NCBI GenBank assembly: GCA_035266485.1
Contig: DATFNI010000181.1
Coordinates: 1 to 42,026 of the forward strand
Origin: Balneolales bacterium
GTDB lineage: Bacteria; Bacteroidota; Rhodothermia; Balneolales; DATFMH01
Direction of reading: 5' to 3'
Length of the DNA: 42,026 nt
Below are positions 4,375 to 27,385 of this stretch, piece after piece. The position numbers and the translations under genes are program-made. Position 1 is the stretch's first letter. Every line of letters begins with the position of its first letter. The notes under the pieces were generated by a model. The model searched no databases. It was not told where the DNA came from and saw only the letters and a list, made by a program, of their open reading frames with translations.

Positions 4375-5604
4375 TTACTGAAGGTGTTCTGCGGCCATCT
4401 TGAACACCTTTTGAAAGGTTTCGTCAACTTCTTTTTCTATATTTTTTTGTTGAGGAAACGGGGTTACGTGAGAATAGTCGAATGGGAAGTCCAATACCTG
4501 CACATTAGCTGGTAAATCTCTGAAATCACCCTTCAGAGTGTTCAATACTTCCCCGGGTGGTATAACCTCGTCTTTGGTCAGCGCCACGGCAGCGATTCGC
4601 GATCCGATCTCTCTGAAGCGATCTTCTCGAATCTTTTTATGGCGGTGACTGCTCAGCATAGACCGAAAATAAATGCCCGACCGGTGGCCCTCATTGAAAT
4701 AGTGGTTTAGCCGTTCGTTTAACTTGCATTCATTATCGAGATGTTCGATGAAAAAGGAATACAGGGCAATATTCGCCTCGCTATCAAGGATGTAGCGCGA
4801 CACAGGATACATACGGTCGAGTGTCGGTCCACCACAAAAGATGAACAACCTGGAATCGGAGAACAGGTTGTCTGTATTGGTCATTAACAGGATTTCAGAG
4901 AGGAATGAACCAATAGAGTAGGCAAAGAAATCGATATCAGCAGTTTTAGATATATGAGGATGGTCACCGGACCTGATACTCCTGACAAGCTGTAAGATGT
5001 CTGAATAGGTCTGTCTGCCCGACCAGAAGAAGCGTTGAGGTATCTTATGTATGCGTGTGCTGATCGCTGCATTTGCAAAGGATGCCTCAGCAATGGCAGG
5101 ATATTTTTTGCGCCTCTCAGACGAAACAAGATTCATTTTCCTGGGATGGCTCCAACCGGCAGGGACCCGGTTCATATGAAAAGCGATGGGAAAGAGAATC
5201 ACTGTTTTATTTGTTAATTCCACCAATCGGTAAGCCCAGCTTAAATACTTTTCCCAATGCTTTTCATTGAGCCCATGAAACAGCAAGATAACGTGCGAAC
5301 TGAGCTGGGTATCTTTAGGAAGGAAAACAGAATATCTAAATGTACGATTACTATCAATGTTACAGTCAGCAGCGTTGAGGTTGTAATCGGGTACATCTGA
5401 AGTCTCCCTAATTATCGGATAAGTTTCCCGGAACGTACGATGATGTCGTTTACATTGGTAAAACTGCGAACCGGGCAAAACATCAGCATAGTGAGATATG
5501 AATGTGTAATTGCGTATCTCAATTGAACTCTCTGGTATGGTGATGCGATCAGCACTCTGATTGAAACAATCCTTCAACCGATTATGTAAGGAGAGGTATG
5601 TCAT
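4375..5604 (-). CDS. Uncharacterised alpha/beta-hydrolase-fold protein
   Basis: 409 aa. The VILLFHGLNE segment resembles an oxyanion region. FAYSIGSF looks like a nucleophile elbow of the (A/G)xSxG type. No closer assignment is possible by eye. Confidence 0.6.
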   Translation of the reverse strand: MTYLSLHNRLKDCFNQSADRITIPESSIEIRNYTFISHYADVLPGSQFYQCKRHHRTFRETYPIIRETSDVPDYNLNAADCNIDSNRTFRYSVFLPKDTQLSSHVILLFHGLNEKHWEKYLSWAYRLVELTNKTVILFPIAFHMNRVPAGWSHPRKMNLVSSERRKKYPAIAEASFANAAISTRIHKIPQRFFWSGRQTYSDILQLVRSIRSGDHPHISKTADIDFFAYSIGSFLSEILLMTNTDNLFSDSRLFIFCGGPTLDRMYPVSRYILDSEANIALYSFFIEHLDNECKLNERLNHYFNEGHRSGIYFRSMLSSHRHKKIREDRFREIGSRIAAVALTKDEVIPPGEVLNTLKGDFRDLPANVQVLDFPFDYSHVTPFPQQKNIEKEVDETFQKVFKMAAEHLQ

Positions 5605-16453: not shown

Positions 16454-16602
16454 ATGACCTCGTTGGTTGCGGTATACACTTTTCTCGCCAGAGGTCATTC
16501 TTTAAATCGGTAAGTAAGGCTTGGAAATTTTCAGATTACTGTAGAATAACCTCTGGCAATATGTTAACGATTAATTAGTAGTAGAATTAGGCCAGAGATT
16601 AT
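16454..16602 (-). promoter_or_regulatory. Candidate translational attenuator of ilvB (four-segment switch A/B/C/D)
   Basis: On the minus-strand RNA the segments are A AUAAUCUCUGGC (16602-16591), B GCCAGAGGUUAUUCU (16557-16543), C AGAAUGACCUCUGGC (16501-16487) and D GAGGUCAU (16461-16454, the ilvB SD). Pairings are A:B 12 bp, B:C 15 bp and C:D 8 bp, and they are mutually exclusive. Confidence 0.5.
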
Positions 16603-16794
16603 ACCTACATTAATCAATAGGACTAGACTTAGTACGGGTAAAGTAAGCCCTACAGAAGGCAGGTAGAGTACGGTAGCGGAAATCAGAGAGATCACGAACA
16701 AAACAGCTTCAGGATATATGAAACCGGATTGTTGGGTATCGACTGGCATTACTGCCACTGTATGTGAGTTAGTAATAGTCAACTTTTGATCCAT
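16564..16794 (-). CDS. 76-aa ORF upstream of ilvB: either a leader-peptide-like ORF or a small two-TM protein
   Basis: 16 of the last 23 codons are Leu/Ile/Val, ending GLILLLINR*. Seven of the eight Leu codons in this tail are CTA, and none of the seven Leu codons earlier in the ORF is CTA. No SD. Confidence 0.4.
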   Translation of the reverse strand: MDQKLTITNSHTVAVMPVDTQQSGFIYPEAVLFVISLISATVLYLPSVGLTLPVLSLVLLINVGIISGLILLLINR

Positions 16795-19502: not shown

Positions 19503-19543
19503 CAAAAAAAAGGGACGCATCCCGTTTCGCAAGATACGCCCCG
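19503..19543 (-). terminator. Intrinsic terminator of the arg operon
   Basis: On the minus strand, GGGGCGUAUC / GAUGCGUCCC (10 bp, two G-U pairs) is followed by U8. It lies about 60 nt past the argH stop. Confidence 0.75.
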
Positions 19544-19603: not shown

Positions 19604-20959
19604 TTAACTCAGCAATTGGTCTTTAACTTCTTTCCACTTTGTCTCCTCGTTTTCAACCCAAGCCGACAGCTTTTCGATGGCATGATTGAAATAGGAGGTA
19701 TCACACTGGCCGGGAGCCCCCAGGTGATGGTAGCATTCACTTAGTTCTTCTTTGGATGGAATCGGATTGTTGGCATACTCCCTGGCCGCTTTTCGATATG
19801 CCTCACGGAAAGGCATGCCGCAAAGGGTTAGAGAATTAGCCAGATGTGTTGCAAAAAGTGAGGAATCGAGTGCTTTGTAGCAGGTATCTTCGTTAAATGA
19901 GACGCCTTTGAGCGCTTTAGATGAAGCATCGCACAACTGAATCGTACGGCTTATGCCGGCCATGGTCAGCTTTTTGATTGTCTGCAAATCACGATGATAC
20001 CCGGATGTCATGTTTGTGGTAGTGGCCTGTAATTGGGTGACCAGTCCCTCAAACTCATGCGAGAATCCGCGGATGAGTTCCCATACATCCGGGTTTTTCT
20101 TCTGGGGCATGATACTGCTGCCGGATACCTGGTCATCACTTAGTGAGATGAATCCTTTATCTGCTCCGGCATAAAACACGATATCAGCTGCCAATTGGTT
20201 AAAAACATTGGCTCCGTATTGCAGGGCATGCAGGAGACGCAATCCCTGATAACCGCGTGACAACTGAACCGTATTTACAGAATATTGCACATTCCCGAAA
20301 CCGAGGAGACGTGCATAAAGCTCGCGATCGATATCAAAATAGGGTACGCCAAAGCCTGCTGCCGCTCCAAGCGGAGAGGTATCAATGGATGCATAGGCTT
20401 GTTTCAGTGATTCGGCCGCAGAAATGAGCAGCTCGATATAACCGGAGCACCACGCATCCACCGAATTGGGCATGGCAGGTTGCGTATGAGTGTACCCCGG
20501 CAGAAATACGCCTTTGTAATTGATCCCGACCGTTCTGAGTGCCTTTATGACACCGATCCATTTGTCCAATATCTTCCTGATGTTCTCTTTTGTATAAAGA
20601 CGGGTATCGGCAATTACCAGATCATTCCGGGAACGTCCGGCATGGATTTTTTTCCCTGCGTCTCCCAACTGATCAGTAAGATGCCGCTCTATTGCCGAGT
20701 GAACATCTTCATCAGCCTTCGTGAGGCCAAACTCCCCCTCTTCCCATAAGCGATAAACACTTTTGAGCTCATGTAACAACATATCGGTATCCTTCTTGTC
20801 CAGAAGTTTCGCCTTATGAAGCACATGAACCTGGGCAATATTACAGATAATATCGTAGGGGATCAGTTGTTCGTCACAGAGTCTGTCTTCCGCTGCCGTA
20901 AATTCGAAAAACCATGCAGAATGAACCTGTTGGTCGTCTTTTTGCCAAACCGTTTTCAT
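19604..20959 (-). CDS. argH: Argininosuccinate lyase
   Basis: 451 aa with the fumarate-lyase signature GSSIMPQKKNPD, plus HAGRSRND and GYTHTQPA. Confidence 0.95.
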   Translation of the reverse strand: MKTVWQKDDQQVHSAWFFEFTAAEDRLCDEQLIPYDIICNIAQVHVLHKAKLLDKKDTDMLLHELKSVYRLWEEGEFGLTKADEDVHSAIERHLTDQLGDAGKKIHAGRSRNDLVIADTRLYTKENIRKILDKWIGVIKALRTVGINYKGVFLPGYTHTQPAMPNSVDAWCSGYIELLISAAESLKQAYASIDTSPLGAAAGFGVPYFDIDRELYARLLGFGNVQYSVNTVQLSRGYQGLRLLHALQYGANVFNQLAADIVFYAGADKGFISLSDDQVSGSSIMPQKKNPDVWELIRGFSHEFEGLVTQLQATTTNMTSGYHRDLQTIKKLTMAGISRTIQLCDASSKALKGVSFNEDTCYKALDSSLFATHLANSLTLCGMPFREAYRKAAREYANNPIPSKEELSECYHHLGAPGQCDTSYFNHAIEKLSAWVENEETKWKEVKDQLLS

Positions 20960-20961
20960 AT

Positions 20962-22014
20962 TCAGGAGAAATATTGAGTGATTAGATCCTGGTACACTTT
21001 TACGCCTTTGTGAAGCTGTTCGATTTCGATATGTTCGTCCCTGGTGTGGGATACCTGGCTGTGTCCCGGACCGATTTTTACCGTCGGGATATCATGCAGG
21101 AACACCCAGTCGGAACTGGTAGGCGACCCGAATCCATCCTGGCCGGAAGCTTTCAAGGCGGAAGTGACCACTTTATGCTTTGGATCGGTACTTGTGGCCA
21201 CGTATCGATCGCTGACTACCGAAATTGATGCGTTCAGTTTTTCAGAGAGCGTATCAATAATATGCTGATTGGATACTTCCGGGATGGTTCGGATATCGAG
21301 GTAGAGATCAGCTTTTTCGGGAGCCATGTTTTTAGCTGTTCCACCTTCAATGATCGTAGGGGTGATTTTTACCCCGCCAATCAGATTATTCTTAGTATCA
21401 AAGGCGATGTTCTTTAAATCAGACAGGACTTTTCCCATCTCATAGATCGCATTCTTGCCCTTCATGCGTGCCGCATGACCGGATTCGCCTCTGGTCGTCA
21501 CTTTCAGGATGAGCATCCCTTTCTGGGCAATGCATGGGGCAAGCGAGGTCGGTTCGCCGACGATGGCGGCATCAGGATCCTCGATGTGATTGCGCAGGAA
21601 GGCCATACCATTATTTACTCCGGCACTTTCTTCGCAAACAGTCAGCGCCATGGTAACACGGCCGTCAGGATTGAATCCGTTGTTTGCCAGCTCGAGCAAT
21701 GAGGTGATCATCGTTGAACCGCAACCCTTGGCATCGGTGCTGCCACGTCCGTACATCTTCCCATCTTTGACAATCGGGCTGAAGGGGTCTCCCACATGAT
21801 CCGGCGACGGCGGTACTACATCTGAATGGCTATTGAGCATCAGCCACGGTCGGCCATTACCCACATGGATCATTAAATTATTTTCGATTCGTTCTAATTG
21901 AACGAGTCCGGTTCCATTCAAATATTGTTCCAGCCAATCTACAAGTGGCTTTTCCTGGCCACTTAACGTGGGAAACTGGATCATCTTTTTTAAGAGATCT
22001 TCAACCTGGTGCAT
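20962..22014 (-). CDS. argE: M20-family deacylase (ArgE-like; N-acyl-ornithine or N-acyl-citrulline deacylase)
   Basis: 350 aa with NSHSDVVPP, GRGSTDAKG, CEES and GESGHAA. It is embedded in the arg operon, 2 nt from argH. Confidence 0.75.
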   Translation of the reverse strand: MHQVEDLLKKMIQFPTLSGQEKPLVDWLEQYLNGTGLVQLERIENNLMIHVGNGRPWLMLNSHSDVVPPSPDHVGDPFSPIVKDGKMYGRGSTDAKGCGSTMITSLLELANNGFNPDGRVTMALTVCEESAGVNNGMAFLRNHIEDPDAAIVGEPTSLAPCIAQKGMLILKVTTRGESGHAARMKGKNAIYEMGKVLSDLKNIAFDTKNNLIGGVKITPTIIEGGTAKNMAPEKADLYLDIRTIPEVSNQHIIDTLSEKLNASISVVSDRYVATSTDPKHKVVTSALKASGQDGFGSPTSSDWVFLHDIPTVKIGPGHSQVSHTRDEHIEIEQLHKGVKVYQDLITQYFS

Positions 22015-22028
22015 GTTTCCTGGGTTGG

Positions 22029-22808
22029 TTAGTGTGTTAGTTGTAGTTGAGTGCCTTGTTTTAAGGCAAGATCGGACGGAGCACAGATGATGACTTCATT
22101 TACATTGTGCTCGAGAGCTTCAAAACCATGCTGTAATTTTGGGATCATGCCCTCGGAAATCCATCCGTCTTTGGATCCCTGGTTAAAAAGTTGGGGGTTG
22201 AGTTTTGCAATGCGTGAATGCGACTGATTTAAAACTCCGCCGGCTCCGGTTACCAGGTAGAGAGTCTCGCATCCCAGCGCACTGGCCAGTGCGGAAGCCA
22301 GCGTGTCGGCATTGATATTCAGCAGCCCGTGATCCTCCGACCAGCTCACGCAGCCGACGACCGGCACAAATCCTTCCCCGATCAATATTTTCAGGATCTT
22401 GGGATTTGCCTGATGGATGTCGCCAACGAGGCCGAAATCAATGGTTTGTCCGTTTTCTATCGATGTTGGGCGTCGTTTAGAGGTCGTCAGCATTCCGTCG
22501 GCGGCTGTCATGCCCACGGGATTGAGTCCATGACCCCGGAACAGGGTGACCAGCCGTTTGTTGACGGTGCCGGCCACTACCTGCACGAGGATTTCACGCG
22601 TGGCATCATCGGTGATTCTTCTGCCGTTATACTTGGTTATGGCAATTCCGAGTTGGTTGCTGAGTGAGTCAATCTGTTTGCCTGCCCCGTGGACCAGCAC
22701 GACGGGGCGATTTTCTTCCTGTTGTTCTTTAATCCACTCTGCGAGGATGGACAGTTGCTCATCCTTCTCTATTAAATCGCCGCCGATTTTAACTAAGACA
22801 GGTTCCAT
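22029..22808 (-). CDS. argB: Acetylglutamate kinase
   Basis: I chose the start at 22808 (MEPVLVKIGGDL), which gives 259 aa. VHGAGKQI and NINADT motifs are present. It overlaps the argF' 3' end by 16 nt. The 80-codon N-terminal extension in the track lies inside argF' and is rejected. Confidence 0.85.
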   Translation of the reverse strand: MEPVLVKIGGDLIEKDEQLSILAEWIKEQQEENRPVVLVHGAGKQIDSLSNQLGIAITKYNGRRITDDATREILVQVVAGTVNKRLVTLFRGHGLNPVGMTAADGMLTTSKRRPTSIENGQTIDFGLVGDIHQANPKILKILIGEGFVPVVGCVSWSEDHGLLNINADTLASALASALGCETLYLVTGAGGVLNQSHSRIAKLNPQLFNQGSKDGWISEGMIPKLQHGFEALEHNVNEVIICAPSDLALKQGTQLQLTH

Positions 22809-23860
22809 AGTTTCATTAATAAAGCTTTCTGGATGTGCAGGCGGTTTTCCGCCTCCTGAATGTGAATGGCAGACTTGCTGTCCAATACCTGGTCGGAGAC
22901 GACCACATTGCGTCGGACCGGAAGGCAATGCATGAAATGTCCGTTGTCGGTCAGTTTCATATCGGATTCGGTTACGGTCCAGTCGCTGTATCCCTTGCGG
23001 ACACGTTCTTCTTCTTTGGGATCCGAATAAATCATGCTTCCATGCCACGATTTGGCATAAACGACGTTAGCTCCTTTCAGACCATCACTCTTTGAATGGC
23101 TGACCTGGAATTTGTCCGAATATTGTCTTAGCTGATTGAGCGTTTTTTCACCGGGTGTCATTTCCTCCGGACACGCAAGGGTGACATTTGCGCCGCTTCG
23201 TACAAATGCTTCCAGAGCTGAGTTTGGAACAGCCCTGGGCAGCGGCTTCGGATGTGGCGCCCAGCGAACAACGACGTTCACATGGGATAGATCATCACCA
23301 TAAACTTCATGGAGTGTCATCCAGTCGGCCATCGATTGGCAGGGGTGAGACTGGGCACTCTCCAGGTTGATGACCGGCACTTTGGAAATTTCGGCGATCT
23401 TGTGGATCAGGCTGTCCTGGGTGTCGGCTTCTTCGTCGGAGAGGGAAGCAAAATGACGAACACCGAGCGCATCCACGTAGGATGTGACGACGGCCACCAT
23501 TTCACGGAGATGCTCCTGCGCGTTTCCGTCCATCACCACACCGTCATTCGTCTCGATATTCCAGGAGCCATTGCCCGGCTGAATCGATGTGATTTTGGCA
23601 CCGATATGGCTGGCAGCCACCTCGAACGACATCCTGGTTCTCAGGGACGGGTTGTTGAACAGGAGGCCCAGCACCTTGTCTTCCGCAACAGGTGAACGGA
23701 AGTTGTCGCGTTTGAGCTGCAGGCCCAGTTGAATGAGTTCAACCAGTTCTTCATTCGTCCAGTCCGACAGTTTCAGGAAATGGCGTAATTCCTTTGTCTG
23801 CGGTCGATGGTTGGTAACAACACCGTTTGAGTAGGTTTTCTGATCAACTGCTAAATGCAT
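22793..23860 (-). CDS. argF: N-acyl-L-ornithine carbamoyltransferase (AOTCase/SOTCase class, ArgF')
   Basis: 355 aa. It has SLRTR instead of the STRTR of classical OTCase, plus HPCQ and HCLP. The canonical ornithine-binding SMG loop is absent. GSWNIETNDGVVMDGNAQEH resembles the 80s loop of the acyl-ornithine enzymes. Confidence 0.8.
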   Translation of the reverse strand: MHLAVDQKTYSNGVVTNHRPQTKELRHFLKLSDWTNEELVELIQLGLQLKRDNFRSPVAEDKVLGLLFNNPSLRTRMSFEVAASHIGAKITSIQPGNGSWNIETNDGVVMDGNAQEHLREMVAVVTSYVDALGVRHFASLSDEEADTQDSLIHKIAEISKVPVINLESAQSHPCQSMADWMTLHEVYGDDLSHVNVVVRWAPHPKPLPRAVPNSALEAFVRSGANVTLACPEEMTPGEKTLNQLRQYSDKFQVSHSKSDGLKGANVVYAKSWHGSMIYSDPKEEERVRKGYSDWTVTESDMKLTDNGHFMHCLPVRRNVVVSDQVLDSKSAIHIQEAENRLHIQKALLMKLWNLS

Positions 23861-23889: not shown

Positions 23890-24912
23890 TCAGAGTACCG
23901 ATCCGGGTTGCTGAAGGCCGGAGTGTTCATCCAGACCATACATGATGTTCAGGTCCTGTATGGCTTGTCCGGCTGCACCCTTGAGTAGGTTGTCGATGGC
24001 GGCGCACACCACAACGGCGTTCTCTTTTTGCTGCCATCCGATATCGATATAATTGCTTCCGACAACATGCTTCAATTGAGGAGTCTGGTCACCGATGCGT
24101 ACGAATGAAGCATGTTTGTAGTATTCGTTATACAAATCACTAAGAGAGATAGAATGACTAAGGGTGAAAGAGGCGGTCAGCCAAATGCCACGGACGAACG
24201 GGCCCGAAACAGGTGTAAAACGAAGGTCCGCATCATGTCCGGACAGTGTGGATATGGTCTGGTTGATTTCACCCAGATGTTGGTGCTTTAATACCTTGTA
24301 GGCCTTCATGTTGCCGGTTCGGTAGGAAAAATGAACCGCATCGGATAATCCGGTTCCCGATCCGGATGAACCGGTTATGGCCGTGATATGATAGGTATCG
24401 GCCGCATCCCGGATGATAGCAGGTAGTAACGCCAGCTGTATGGCTGTGGCGAAGCAGCCGGGAACAGCTACGTATGAAGATTGAGCAATATCATCATGAA
24501 AGAATTCAGGTAATCCGTATACAAACTGATCCAGCAGACCGGCATAAGCGTGCTCATATCCGTAGTAGGTTTTGTAAGCGTCTGCTTGCTTCAGTCGGAA
24601 ATCAGAACCGATATCGACGATTTTCCCCTTATAGCCATCATCCAGCACGGCAGCTATGGGTTGAGCGGACTGTCCGTGAGGCAGCGCGAAGAGAAGGACA
24701 TCCGCACCATCATTGAGAAGCTGATCCATCCCTGAAAAAGACCGGTCGATAGTGCCCCTGAATGCCGGGAAGAGATTGGAGAACGATTCTCCGGCATTAC
24801 GATTGGCATAGATCGTATGGAGCTGAAAATCCGGATGGCCATGAATGAGACGAACAGCCTCCATGCCAGCCAGACCACTACCACCGACAACCGATACAGA
24901 GATTCCTTTCAT
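23890..24912 (-). CDS. argC: N-acetyl-gamma-glutamyl-phosphate reductase
   Basis: 340 aa with VVGGSGLAG and the active-site segment PGCFATA. Confidence 0.9.
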   Translation of the reverse strand: MKGISVSVVGGSGLAGMEAVRLIHGHPDFQLHTIYANRNAGESFSNLFPAFRGTIDRSFSGMDQLLNDGADVLLFALPHGQSAQPIAAVLDDGYKGKIVDIGSDFRLKQADAYKTYYGYEHAYAGLLDQFVYGLPEFFHDDIAQSSYVAVPGCFATAIQLALLPAIIRDAADTYHITAITGSSGSGTGLSDAVHFSYRTGNMKAYKVLKHQHLGEINQTISTLSGHDADLRFTPVSGPFVRGIWLTASFTLSHSISLSDLYNEYYKHASFVRIGDQTPQLKHVVGSNYIDIGWQQKENAVVVCAAIDNLLKGAAGQAIQDLNIMYGLDEHSGLQQPGSVL

Positions 24913-24915
24913 GGA

Positions 24916-25995
24916 TCAGGCAACCTGGATTTTATGGTTTCCCGAACGCTCGGGATTGTTCAATTCGTCGAGCACATATTCGACAAGGGTATTGGGATGC
25001 TGCATGGCGTTGGCAGCCTGGATACCAAGAGTTTTTGTGATATATCGAACACCAACGATGTTGTCTGTAACGGGTCCGGTTATCAGGTTGAGTTCGTGAT
25101 TGTATTGCGAACGGAAGAGTTTATCGAGTGCCCAGCAACCAGTGAGATCCTGTGCGGCCGCCACATGAACGGCAATATGTTGCTGGATCTCCTTATCCAT
25201 CAGTAGATTGTCAACGCCGTATGCACCGATCACACCGTCTCCGAATTCTAGAACGATCGCATCAGGCGAATAGGAATTCAGATGCTTGATCAGGCCTTTA
25301 GCCATCGTGACTACGTTTTGATGGGTCGTGGAAACGAGTCCGGCTTCTGAGAAGTTGGTGCAAACAACGGCGCCTTTATCTTTCATCGCTTTGGTGTCGC
25401 GCAGGAGGCTGGCACCTGTAAGCTTAGCTGCTGCAACGCGCAATCCTTTTTGCGTCAGCTTTTCTATGATGGAAGAAGCGGCGTAGGTCTTGCCGACGTT
25501 CATGCAGGTTCCTGTGACAGCGATCAGGGGAGCACTGTGGGGGAGATGGTCCTCCCATTCAATGGCAAAGTCGCTGATCGACGCGTGCTTGTAGGTATCA
25601 TCATGGTAGATCATTACTGCGCCGATCACTTCGACTCTGGTTGCCGGACCATAAGCAGGGTAATCAGACTGGCACAATCCGATGATCCCGCCCATATTTA
25701 AAATGTGAAGAATGTCGCCTTTTTTTATCTGACGCGGCACGATGCCGCTATATCCGCGTAGTGCCTGACGCTCGCCGAGTGTTCCAACGAGGATTTTATT
25801 ACGTTTGAGGGTTATGAACTCACCGTTACGTAGCTCAACCTGGTTGTAGGTAGTCTTTTCATCCAAAATGCGTACCGCAACCAGGAAACCTTCTCTGGCA
25901 ACGATGTTGTCTGAGACGATCAGATGATGATCCATAGGCACATTGCTTGTGCTTGAGGAGATGATATCCGCGTCCAGAATCTTGCTGTTCTCCAT
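24916..25995 (-). CDS. Uncharacterised two-domain protein with a dethiobiotin-synthase/CobQ/DUF1611-like P-loop, embedded in the arg operon
   Basis: 359 aa. The N-terminal ~150 aa look beta-rich. The segment IAVTGTCMNVGKTYAAS then has the GTxxxxGKT pattern, followed by VLEFGDG. It sits 16 nt after argG and 3 nt before argC. Confidence 0.7.
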   Translation of the reverse strand: MENSKILDADIISSSTSNVPMDHHLIVSDNIVAREGFLVAVRILDEKTTYNQVELRNGEFITLKRNKILVGTLGERQALRGYSGIVPRQIKKGDILHILNMGGIIGLCQSDYPAYGPATRVEVIGAVMIYHDDTYKHASISDFAIEWEDHLPHSAPLIAVTGTCMNVGKTYAASSIIEKLTQKGLRVAAAKLTGASLLRDTKAMKDKGAVVCTNFSEAGLVSTTHQNVVTMAKGLIKHLNSYSPDAIVLEFGDGVIGAYGVDNLLMDKEIQQHIAVHVAAAQDLTGCWALDKLFRSQYNHELNLITGPVTDNIVGVRYITKTLGIQAANAMQHPNTLVEYVLDELNNPERSGNHKIQVA

Positions 25996-26011: not shown

Positions 26012-27205
26012 TTACTGTTTATTGCTCAAAATTGATGCGATGCCGTAAATTTTGCTGAATGCCCTGGCTTCTTCGCCATTCCAGAGCTGGCTGCTCTCGC
26101 CATACTGAGCCTTGCCGTTCATCAGCGAGTTTGGCGACTCTACGCCAAGAGGAAATGCATTGCCTCTGTATAAATACAGATTCGTGGTTCCGTCTACACG
26201 TTCCTGAGTAGCATCCAGGAATGCCTCGATGTTACGCATGACCGGGTCGAAATACTGTGCTTCATGCAATAACATACCGTAATAGTCAGACAGGGTATCT
26301 TTAAGATGACGTTGCCATTTAGTCAGAATTTGTTTTTCAAGTTCGCGGTGTGCCGTATAAACCAGTGTGGCAACAGGGGCCTCAAAACCGATACGGCCTT
26401 TAATGCCGAGGATCGTGTCGCCGGTATGCATGCCGCGGCCAATCCCGTGTTCGACAGCCGCCTTTTTGATAGACTGTAATAAGTTAAGTGGTGTATCCGA
26501 TTCTCCGTTCACTGCAACAGGAAGTCCCTGTTCGAACGTAATGCTGAATTCTTCTGCTTCGTCATTAAAAAGATGGGGAGCCTTCAGTTCAGGAAACGCC
26601 TCGGGTGGCAGTGCCTTGTTTGGAGTCAGTGTTTCATAACCGCCAATCGTGGTGCCCCAGATACCGGCATTGATGGAATAAGGAGCTTTCGAACCGTCCC
26701 GATCCATCGGGACAAAACCCCCCTCTTTAAGAATCTTGATTTGCTGCTCCCGGGTGAACTTCTCCTCGCGGATAGGGGTGATGATCTGCATATCGGGATT
26801 GACCACGCGTAGCGCCACATCAAAACGAACCTGGTCGTTTCCGGCACCCGTAGAACCGTGAGCTACAGCATCAGCCCCGATATTTTTGGCATATTCGGCA
26901 ATGAGCATTGCCTGGATGAAGCGCTCGGCGCCAACGCTAAGAGGGTAGGTTCGGTCTCGTAAGACATTGCCCTTTATCAGATAAGCAATAATTTTAGAAT
27001 AAATCAGATCCGTACCATCGAGGGTGGCATGCGAATCGGCGCCCAGGGCAAGTGACTTTTCTTCGAGCTTGTCCTTTTGTTCGGAAGTCATGCCAAGGCA
27101 ATCCACGGTTACGGTGTGAACCTCGCAATCGTATTTCTTTTTCAGATACGGAACACAAAAACTGGTGTCTAAACCACCGCTAAATGCGAGAACAATCTTA
27201 TTCAT
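26012..27205 (-). CDS. argG: Argininosuccinate synthase
   Basis: 397 aa with AFSGGLDTS and HGSTGAGNDQVRF. Confidence 0.95.
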   Translation of the reverse strand: MNKIVLAFSGGLDTSFCVPYLKKKYDCEVHTVTVDCLGMTSEQKDKLEEKSLALGADSHATLDGTDLIYSKIIAYLIKGNVLRDRTYPLSVGAERFIQAMLIAEYAKNIGADAVAHGSTGAGNDQVRFDVALRVVNPDMQIITPIREEKFTREQQIKILKEGGFVPMDRDGSKAPYSINAGIWGTTIGGYETLTPNKALPPEAFPELKAPHLFNDEAEEFSITFEQGLPVAVNGESDTPLNLLQSIKKAAVEHGIGRGMHTGDTILGIKGRIGFEAPVATLVYTAHRELEKQILTKWQRHLKDTLSDYYGMLLHEAQYFDPVMRNIEAFLDATQERVDGTTNLYLYRGNAFPLGVESPNSLMNGKAQYGESSQLWNGEEARAFSKIYGIASILSNKQ

Positions 27206-27226: not shown

Positions 27227-27264
27227 AAAACAAAAAAAGGCAGAACCGGGAAAGTTCTGCCTTT
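27227..27264 (-). terminator. Leader (attenuator) terminator 21 nt upstream of the argG start
   Basis: On the minus strand: AAAGGCAGAAC, loop UUUCCCG, GUUCUGCCUUU, then a U-run continuing as U7-G-U4 to 27227. Confidence 0.75.
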
Positions 27265-27295: not shown

Positions 27296-27385
27296 TCACC
27301 TAATGGCATAGCTTTCCCTTCCGTTTGAAACTAACGGTCGCCGCCGGAGAGCTATGTTAACTGGATATGTAGGTAGTGATTTCAT
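27296..27385 (-). CDS. Candidate arginine leader peptide (29 aa)
   Basis: MKSLPTYPVNIALRRRPLVSNGRESYAIR*. Codons 14-16 are CGG CGG CGA (27346-27338). There are two further AGG codons, one of them the last sense codon. The ORF overlaps the anti-antiterminator and antiterminator segments. Confidence 0.6.
   Translation of the reverse strand: MKSLPTYPVNIALRRRPLVSNGRESYAIR

Follow-up and report, generated by a model that had tools for sequence, protein, structure and literature searches.

The 42,026-nucleotide window analyzed here (contig DATFNI010000181.1 of a Balneolales bacterium) contains an arginine biosynthesis operon whose second gene, here named gene X, encodes a protein that belongs to no above-threshold Pfam or NCBIfam family. 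X is likely to catalyze the first committed step of arginine synthesis, in which L-glutamate is acylated, most likely with a succinyl group. X is thereby most likely a non-homologous replacement for ArgA, ArgJ and the GNAT protein of Bacteroidetes and Caldithrix (BT3761/Cabys_1732). Gene position, conservation, fold class and the residue signature of the neighboring transcarbamylase ArgF' are observed here, the activity, the acyl group and the donor of X are inferred, and the placement of X as the first enzyme rests on gene context, not on chemistry. The operon comprises the following features.

26012-27205, minus strand: argG, argininosuccinate synthase, the first gene of the operon (PF00764/PF20979; TIGR00032, 281 bits)
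24916-25995, minus strand: gene X, an open reading frame (ORF) of 359 residues; predicted non-GNAT N-acyl (probably N-succinyl)-L-glutamate synthase
23890-24912, minus strand: argC (TIGR01850, 342 bits)
22793-23860, minus strand: argF', knotted N-acylornithine transcarbamylase (NF003384, 386 bits)
22029-22808, minus strand: argB, N-acylglutamate kinase (TIGR00761, 191 bits; ATG start from the ORF translation)
20962-22014, minus strand: argE-like M20 deacylase gene of the ArgE/DapE family (PF01546/PF07687; TIGR01910, 180 bits)
19604-20959, minus strand: argH, argininosuccinate lyase, the last gene of the operon (PF00206; TIGR00838, 273 bits)
19512-19542, minus strand: intrinsic terminator-like hairpin after argH, at the operon end (terminator scan; 13-bp stem followed by T8)

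The genes are arranged in the order argG-X-argC-argF'-argB-argE-argH with spacings of 16, 3, 29, -16, 14 and 2 nucleotides, the negative value being a 16-nucleotide overlap of argB with the end of argF'. A preliminary description of this DNA, made from its letters alone, had described X as a 359-residue ORF in a tightly packed operon with gaps of -16 to 29 nucleotides and had reported that argD and argA or argJ are missing beside it. The ORF with the sequence quoted there lies at 24916-25995 on the minus strand, the measured spacing agrees with that description, and no class-III aminotransferase (argD), ArgJ, ArgA/GNAT or argR gene was found in the 42-kb window. In a comparison with L004, L021 and others, the arg operon also lacks argD in about one third of the Balneolales loci, and at the remaining loci argD lies between argC and argF'. 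ArgD of the lineage of the window must be encoded outside the arg operon. Does X stand in for the missing aminotransferase? This candidate role was rejected because operons with argD carry X just as regularly.

In the proposed pathway, X would acylate the alpha-amino group of L-glutamate to generate N-succinylglutamate as the substrate of ArgB. ArgB would then form N-succinylglutamyl-phosphate, ArgC would convert this phosphate to the semialdehyde, and ArgD, encoded elsewhere in the genome, would convert the semialdehyde to N-succinylornithine. ArgF' would carbamoylate N-succinylornithine to N-succinylcitrulline, from which the M20 deacylase would release citrulline. ArgG and ArgH would complete the pathway through argininosuccinate to arginine. 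The M20 protein of the window scores below threshold for all equivalog models and is predicted to be an N-acylcitrulline deacylase. Acetyl recycling of the ArgJ type is not expected in this operon because a deacylase gene is present.

The gene neighborhood of X is conserved well beyond the window. A scan of a genome collection retrieved 285 relatives, of which the best 80 loci were inspected with approximately 10 kb on each side. All of them belong to Balneolales or Rhodothermales, and among them are two Rubrivirga isolates and one complete metagenome-assembled genome (MAG); the scan used the profile of alignment A1, not the broader alignment A2, and the survey is biased towards Rhodothermota. 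The X protein of the closest genome, a MAG (locus L010), is 96% identical, and the next relatives are Balneolales, which assigns the window to a Balneolales bacterium. In essentially all 80 loci, wherever the contig reaches, the order argG-X-argC is retained and is followed by (argD)-argF'-argB-argE-argH. The exceptions are L050, in which a 2.4-kb insertion separates argG from X, and L087, in which argC was not detected by a crude ORF assignment. Distant members of the family that share only 27-41% identity with X keep the linkage to arginine genes in other phyla, as observed in the following contexts.

Metagenome contig, X at 41% identity: argR-X-argC-argD-argF-argB
MAG contig, X at 34% identity: X-argC-argD-argF
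Gemmatimonadota MAG: argR-X-argC-argD-argB-argG
Metagenome contig: argG-X-argC-argF-argB-argE
Blastocatellia MAG (Acidobacteriota): argR-argG-X-argC-argF-argB
Deltaproteobacteria/Myxococcota-type MAG: X-argC-argD-argB
5.98-Mb contig: X-argC-argD-argB-argE-argR-argG-argH

The four-gene operon X-argC-argD-argB is exactly the set required to convert glutamate to N-acylornithine, if X performs the first step. No Pfam domain of GNAT or ArgJ type was found within 8-10 kb of X in any of the distant contexts examined. The preliminary description had called for a survey of linkage to argG and argC, and the 80 loci together with the seven distant contexts show the arginine neighborhood to be conserved.

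A gene fusion is also found in the X family. In the protein cluster P0174, which occurs on four contigs, X is fused to an amino-acid-kinase (AAK) domain that matches argB with 127 bits and ArgA-type kinase domains with 105 bits. The fusion gene stands alone at L006 (9860-11881; also at L007-L009) in a metagenomic organism of high GC content, where it is oriented divergently to an adjacent gene of the arginase family. Its kinase domain has K-I-A-D in place of the K-x-G-G motif. Judged from this motif, the kinase domain may be a non-catalytic, ArgA-like regulatory domain, and the fusion may represent a regulated synthase similar to ArgA. P0174 echoes the build of classical ArgA, which combines a catalytic domain with an amino-acid-kinase domain, although the domain order is reversed. 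Classical ArgA (AAK plus GNAT) and ArgJ share with X the proposed step, but neither sequence nor fold relates them to X. A search for additional X-AAK fusions returned only P0174 itself. The central proposal of the preliminary description, that X fills the missing glutamate N-acylation step, thus draws support from the neighborhoods in several phyla, the minimal operon X-argC-argD-argB, the kinase-domain fusion and a published prediction.

This published prediction concerns a protein of Steroidobacter denitrificans. According to a review from 2015, no gene had been identified for the succinylation of glutamate (PMC4490483). For Bacteroidetes, GapMind (2020) proposed the GNAT protein BT3761, which is homologous to Cabys_1732 of Caldithrix. 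The same role was subsequently predicted, without experiments, for S. denitrificans ACG33_RS14135 (A0A127FCT3) and its homologues by Price et al. (bioRxiv 10.1101/2024.10.14.618325; 2024-2026 preprint). According to the preprint, homologues of ACG33_RS14135 are virtually always located in arg operons and never co-occur with ArgA homologues, the protein weakly resembles DgcN (7XRJ, Foldseek E 1.4e-7), and the adjacent ArgF' proteins carry A, P, S, V, I or T at position 92, or Gln in two cases. Like X, the members of this family are hypothetical proteins encoded among arginine genes (argB, C, D, F', E, G, H, R), adjoin an ArgF' that is non-Glu at position 92, with Gln in a few cases, and have a remote P-loop or DgcN resemblance. 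Over its full length, X is also 39% identical (E 1e-81) to the homologue from Woeseia oceani, which is part of a related and very large gammaproteobacterial clade. By this description and the Woeseia homologue, X is very probably a Balneolales member of the ACG33_RS14135 family; the 2026 supplements of GapMind do not list members of this family. The role that we assign to X is already published as a prediction and hence is not new. The preprint, unlike the present work, contains no domain analysis and considers no ATP-dependent alternative. The present analysis adds an N-terminal domain without a fold match in the PDB, the status of X outside DUF1611, a residue register with BioD, and a conserved candidate attenuator with Arg codons in the argG leader.

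The X family is highly conserved. X has 331 close relatives, and the mean column identity is 62% over 34 sequences. A search of 1.84 billion cluster representatives with the X profile returned 1588 matches, 204 of them below 1e-30. Database labels on genes of the family read hypothetical, DUF1611, MobB or dethiobiotin synthase. X exhibits only sub-threshold matches that are confined to its P-loop, namely to DUF1611_C (PF07755; 18.1 bits against a cut-off of 25, residues 153-191, profile positions 10-48 of 201), CbiA (PF01656; 17.1 bits, cut-off 25.4) and bioD (TIGR00347; 19.9 bits, cut-off 83.3). DUF1611_C is the top sub-threshold Pfam match for many relatives of X, with at most 24.6 bits. Residues 1-150 have no Pfam match. 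No GNAT family was found at E<=0.01 and no ArgJ domain (PF01960) was found in the Pfam and NCBIfam searches, consistent with the statement of the preliminary description that X is neither a GNAT nor an ArgJ. The same description had likened the P-loop of X to those of dethiobiotin synthetase (BioD), CobQ/CobB-type enzymes and DUF1611; key residues align with BioD as described below, and X is not a member of DUF1611.

X was ruled out as a member of the DUF1611/DgcN family; PF07755 scores below the gathering threshold and covers only the P-loop, and the N-terminal domain of X is different. Likewise, X is not an above-threshold member of the bioD or CbiA family, as both models score below their cut-offs. 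We take DgcN to belong to the DUF1611 family and the N-terminal domain of that family (DUF1611_N) to be Rossmann-like. The analogy between X and DgcN is weaker than the label 'DUF1611 domain-containing protein' suggests because X fails the criteria of Pfam and has a different N-terminal domain. X and DgcN both have a P-loop-containing C-terminal domain with a GT....GK loop. The Pfam match of X and its relatives amounts, however, to only 17-25 bits over approximately 40 P-loop residues, and X differs from DgcN by its beta-rich N-terminal domain. DgcN is a D-glutamate N-acetyltransferase (EC 2.3.1.312, PDB 7XRJ) that uses acetyl-CoA as the donor. The preliminary description had named DgcN a glutamate N-acetyltransferase; its substrate is D-glutamate and not L-glutamate. 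DgcN acts on D-glutamate and acetyl-CoA in catabolism, whereas X is predicted to act on L-glutamate and a succinyl donor in biosynthesis.

The AlphaFold2 model of X, calculated with 34 homologues, has high confidence (mean predicted local distance difference test score, pLDDT, 90.3; predicted template modeling score 0.89) and reveals two domains. The N-terminal domain, expected from the letters to be beta-rich over about 150 residues, is all-beta from residue 1 to approximately 140 in the model, and the P-loop domain is alpha/beta and spans residues 157-346.

25546-25995, minus strand: beta-rich N-terminal domain of X, residues 1 to ~150 (AlphaFold2 secondary structure; invariant motifs LGERQALRGYSG.P and LN.GGI.G)
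24946-25545, minus strand: C-terminal SIMIBI-type P-loop domain of X, residues ~151-350 (Foldseek; hhalign against E. coli BioD)
25486-25512, minus strand: Walker A loop of X, G162-T-C-M-N-V-G-K169-T170, aligned with BioD G-T-D-T-E-V-G-K15-T16

A Foldseek search of the PDB with X yielded only generic matches to P-loop domains (E ~1e-5, TM score ~0.35), which include FtsY/Ffh, BioD, HypB, BchL, the N-terminal ATP domain of CTP synthetase and MinD/ParA. For a separate model of the N-terminal domain (pLDDT 88.7), Foldseek found no similar fold in the PDB, the best E value being 0.83. Sequence and profile searches of the PDB with X likewise returned only P-loop-local matches to BioD, FtsY and MobB, and neither 7XRJ nor DUF1611 structures were among them.

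Residue conservation highlights both domains. Across 62 family members with identities down to 27%, P87, G168, K169, K191 and E250 are invariant, and S14, G36, E54, G74, R76, G84, G93, G103, G106, G125, P156, T170, G194, D200, G208, A209, F215, D217, G219, D245, G252, D283 and G307 are at least 90% conserved. Hhalign of the family alignment A2 against E. coli BioD places residues 158-258 of X on residues 5-124 of BioD (probability 79%, E 1.6e-5) and pairs K169, T170, K191 and E250 of X with K15, T16, K37 and E115 of BioD. In BioD, these four residues contact the phosphates of ATP, the Mg ion and the carbamate undergoing phosphorylation. HMMER with the broad X profile matches BioD with E values down to 1.7e-4. 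The BioD, CobQ/CbiA and CTP synthase domains share with X the Walker A sequence VTGTxxxVGKT, and the beta-2 lysine (K37) and the acidic residue of the E-G-x-G motif (E115) of BioD align with X. The similarity is nevertheless local, at approximately 100 residues, and X differs from the BioD-type ligases in its extra 150-residue beta domain.

The active site of X probably lies where the novel beta domain meets the P-loop domain. Glutamate would be held by E54, R76 and P87 of the beta domain, and the nucleotide portion of the acyl donor by K169, T170, K191 and E250 of the P-loop domain. As for the identity of this donor, we tentatively favor succinyl-CoA by analogy to DgcN, with confidence that stays limited. 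In such a transferase, the P-loop would hold the nucleotide part of coenzyme A (CoA). We lean towards a succinyl-CoA transferase over a ligase because DgcN provides a biochemical precedent on the same substrate group.

A less probable but serious variant of the same role, included in our overall assessment of X as the first enzyme, is that X is an ATP-dependent succinate:L-glutamate ligase. The P-loop domain would phosphorylate succinate to succinyl-phosphate, and the alpha-amine of glutamate would attack this intermediate to yield N-succinylglutamate, ADP and phosphate without a CoA thioester. In BioD, CobQ/CbiA, CTP synthase, PurA and formyltetrahydrofolate synthetase, a nucleoside triphosphate activates a carboxyl or carbonyl oxygen, after which a C-N bond forms. 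The alignment of the invariant residues of X with BioD K15, T16, K37 and E115 favors the ligase mechanism. X has a canonical Walker A GKT, the catalytic K/T/K/E set of BioD is invariant or at least 90% conserved across the X family in the hhalign register, and BioD and the ATP domain of CTP synthetase are among the best fold matches. However, DgcN, the only characterized distant relative named in the literature, uses acetyl-CoA (EC 2.3.1.312), DUF1611_C ranks slightly above CbiA among the sub-threshold Pfam matches, and the BioD alignment spans only about 100 residues with a modest probability.

Which acyl group does the pathway carry? Acylornithine transcarbamylases are distinguished by three diagnostic positions, which in Xanthomonas numbering are Glu92, Asn185 and Lys302 in N-acetylornithine transcarbamylase (AOTCase) and A/S/P/V/Q, P and V/I/E in N-succinylornithine transcarbamylase (SOTCase) (PMC4581275). 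Alignment to Xanthomonas AOTCase (3kzc) places Q115, P208 and V320 of the window ArgF' at these positions. Among 65 ArgF' proteins linked to X, the first position is occupied by Ala in 33, Thr in 25, Gln in six and Ser in one, and never by Glu; the second is Pro in all 65, and the third is Val in 64 of 64. The N-succinylornithine signature of the ArgF' proteins makes a pathway of succinylated intermediates probable, with X as its probable N-succinyl-L-glutamate synthase. The N-succinyl route had been raised in the preliminary description, and it fits the three N-succinylornithine-type residues of the window ArgF'.

An improbable alternative is that X is an N-acetylglutamate synthase in an acetylated pathway, as in Xanthomonas. 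NCBIfam names the window ArgF' an N-acetylornithine carbamoyltransferase (NF003384, 386 bits), ArgF' is overall closer to Xanthomonas AOTCase (262 bits) than to Bacteroides fragilis SOTCase (194 bits), and DgcN transfers an acetyl group. These points are opposed by the SOTCase-type residues at all three positions in the window ArgF' and in the 65 X-linked proteins, in which Glu92 never occurs, and by the conclusion of Price et al., based on 70 proteins, that the group is succinyl. Moreover, GapMind notes that such transcarbamylases are commonly misnamed and that the same misannotation affects Bacteroides. Judged by these signature residues, the NCBIfam name is probably wrong for the window ArgF' and reflects a systematic misannotation.

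Still slightly less probable is an accessory role in which X is an NTPase that, for example, acts as metallochaperone of the M20 deacylase, forms a scaffold with ArgC or regulates in response to arginine. In favor of such a role, HypB, a G3E metallochaperone, and switches of the MinD/ParA type are among the fold matches, X always adjoins argC, and one 687-residue protein (P0257) matches both X and argC. Against it, X is kept in operons without an M20 gene (argG-X-argC-argD-argF-argB and X-argC-argD-argB), its highly conserved non-P-loop domain and invariant K191 suggest substrate chemistry and not a switch, the first step would be left without a gene, and the match of P0257 to argC is weak, at 42 bits, and may stem from an error in gene calling. 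A LysW-type carrier route was also considered and rejected, as the operon contains no small carrier gene or ArgX and encodes an acylornithine transcarbamylase.

Several points weigh against the assignment of X as the N-succinylglutamate synthase. The entry of Price et al. is explicitly a prediction, and the membership of X in the ACG33_RS14135 family is deduced from the description of that family and from the Woeseia homologue. The check for argA, argJ or a BT3761-type GNAT covers approximately 10 kb on each side of the loci, and a metabolic model of Rhodothermus marinus lists two genes annotated as N-acetylglutamate synthase. DgcN (7XRJ) is not among the top 50 of the 147 Foldseek matches of X (E<=1e-3), in which generic SIMIBI NTPases score best. 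The X-AAK fusion is confined to a single protein cluster. Finally, Thr at position 92 of ArgF' (25 of 65) and Gln at this position lie outside the experimentally tested substitutions.

The GNAT protein BT3761/Cabys_1732 is a functional counterpart of X. It occupies the same operon slot (argA-G-C-B-E-H in Caldithrix and the arg clusters with succinylated intermediates in Bacteroidetes) and is likewise predicted to form N-succinylglutamate, but it has the unrelated GNAT fold and is a functional analogue, not a homologue. If confirmed, X would be a second, unrelated solution to glutamate succinylation beside the Bacteroidetes GNAT, which is now a genetic candidate. Carriers of X include Balneolales, Rhodothermales, Gemmatimonadota, Acidobacteriota, myxobacterial-type MAGs and the very abundant marine Woeseiaceae. 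Confirmation of the role would fill a 'missing argA' that recurs when genomes of these groups are annotated or their auxotrophies predicted. It would also extend the N-acylglutamate synthases by a P-loop enzyme and settle whether ATP, in place of an acyl-CoA, can drive the step. If the ligase mechanism were true, arginine synthesis would start without a CoA thioester, a core pathway would open with an enzyme of a new class in which a previously unseen beta-domain fold holds glutamate, and relatives of X would install N-acyl protecting groups in the RimK-linked and phosphonate natural-product clusters described below.

The wider X family extends beyond arginine operons. In a Candidatus Aenigmatarchaeota MAG (L096, 9001-11878) and on a metagenome contig (L092, 267-2378), distant members adjoin genes for RimK-type ATP-grasp glutamate ligases; the archaeal MAG has two such ligase genes, and its X-like gene overlaps the first one. 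This arrangement suggests a non-arginine role associated with glutamate ligation. Other members reside in phosphonate-type clusters on plasmids of Priestia megaterium (NZ_CP085446.1; L101, 3730-12418) and Bacillus paranthracis (NZ_CP116206.1; L102, 1-7957), together with a phosphoenolpyruvate mutase family gene, a split thiamine pyrophosphate-dependent decarboxylase, ATP-grasp ligases and an ornithine/aspartate transcarbamylase homologue. An M20 peptidase gene is also present in the Priestia cluster, and one of the two clusters contains a TauD dioxygenase gene. The X-like genes of these clusters are annotated as hypothetical or DUF1611, and hhalign assigns the entire B. paranthracis protein to the X family (probability 99.9%). 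Both the RimK-linked and the phosphonate-type settings would fit N-acylation of an amino acid, possibly with a removable protecting group. On Paracoccus and Sulfitobacter plasmids, an X-like gene adjoins an ABC ATPase gene.

The region of approximately 180 nucleotides upstream of argG contains a candidate transcriptional attenuator.

27296-27385, minus strand: candidate leader peptide MKSLPTYPVNIALRRRPLVSNGRESYAIR, 29 codons, with three consecutive Arg codons at 27338-27346
27236-27264, minus strand: terminator hairpin and T-run of the candidate attenuator, ~30 nucleotides upstream of the argG start (terminator scan)

The 5' arm of the terminator can pair alternatively with GGGAAAGCTATGCC at the end of the leader ORF, which would form an antiterminator; RNAalifold identified one compensatory pair. 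The leader frame and the motif RRRPL..NGRE.YA..* are conserved in L010, L011 and L012, in which the flanks diverge. Leader ORFs with an Arg run occur 150-270 nucleotides upstream of argG in 68 of the 80 loci (L010-L089), compared with 22% of random 450-nucleotide windows, and they are absent where argR is located in the operon. Rfam has no family that matches the argG leader at either gathering or permissive thresholds. On these grounds, the argG leader looks like a case of ribosome-mediated attenuation keyed to arginine codons.

Elsewhere in the window lie an ilv/leu operon, the genes thrA-thrB-thrC and pheA, and genes for class I, class IV and DegT aminotransferases. The minus strand at 4375-5604 encodes a full-length DUF6051 protein (480 bits), flanked on one side by a gene similar to nuoJ (NADH-quinone oxidoreductase chain 6 family) and on the other by the ilv/leu cluster. 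A 76-residue ORF at 16564-16794 on the minus strand terminates in a very Leu/Ile/Val-rich stretch, LTLPVLSLVLLINVGIISGLILLLINR, and lies approximately 85 nucleotides upstream of the ilvB-like acetolactate synthase gene (start 16479). This ORF could encode a branched-chain leader peptide or a small membrane protein.

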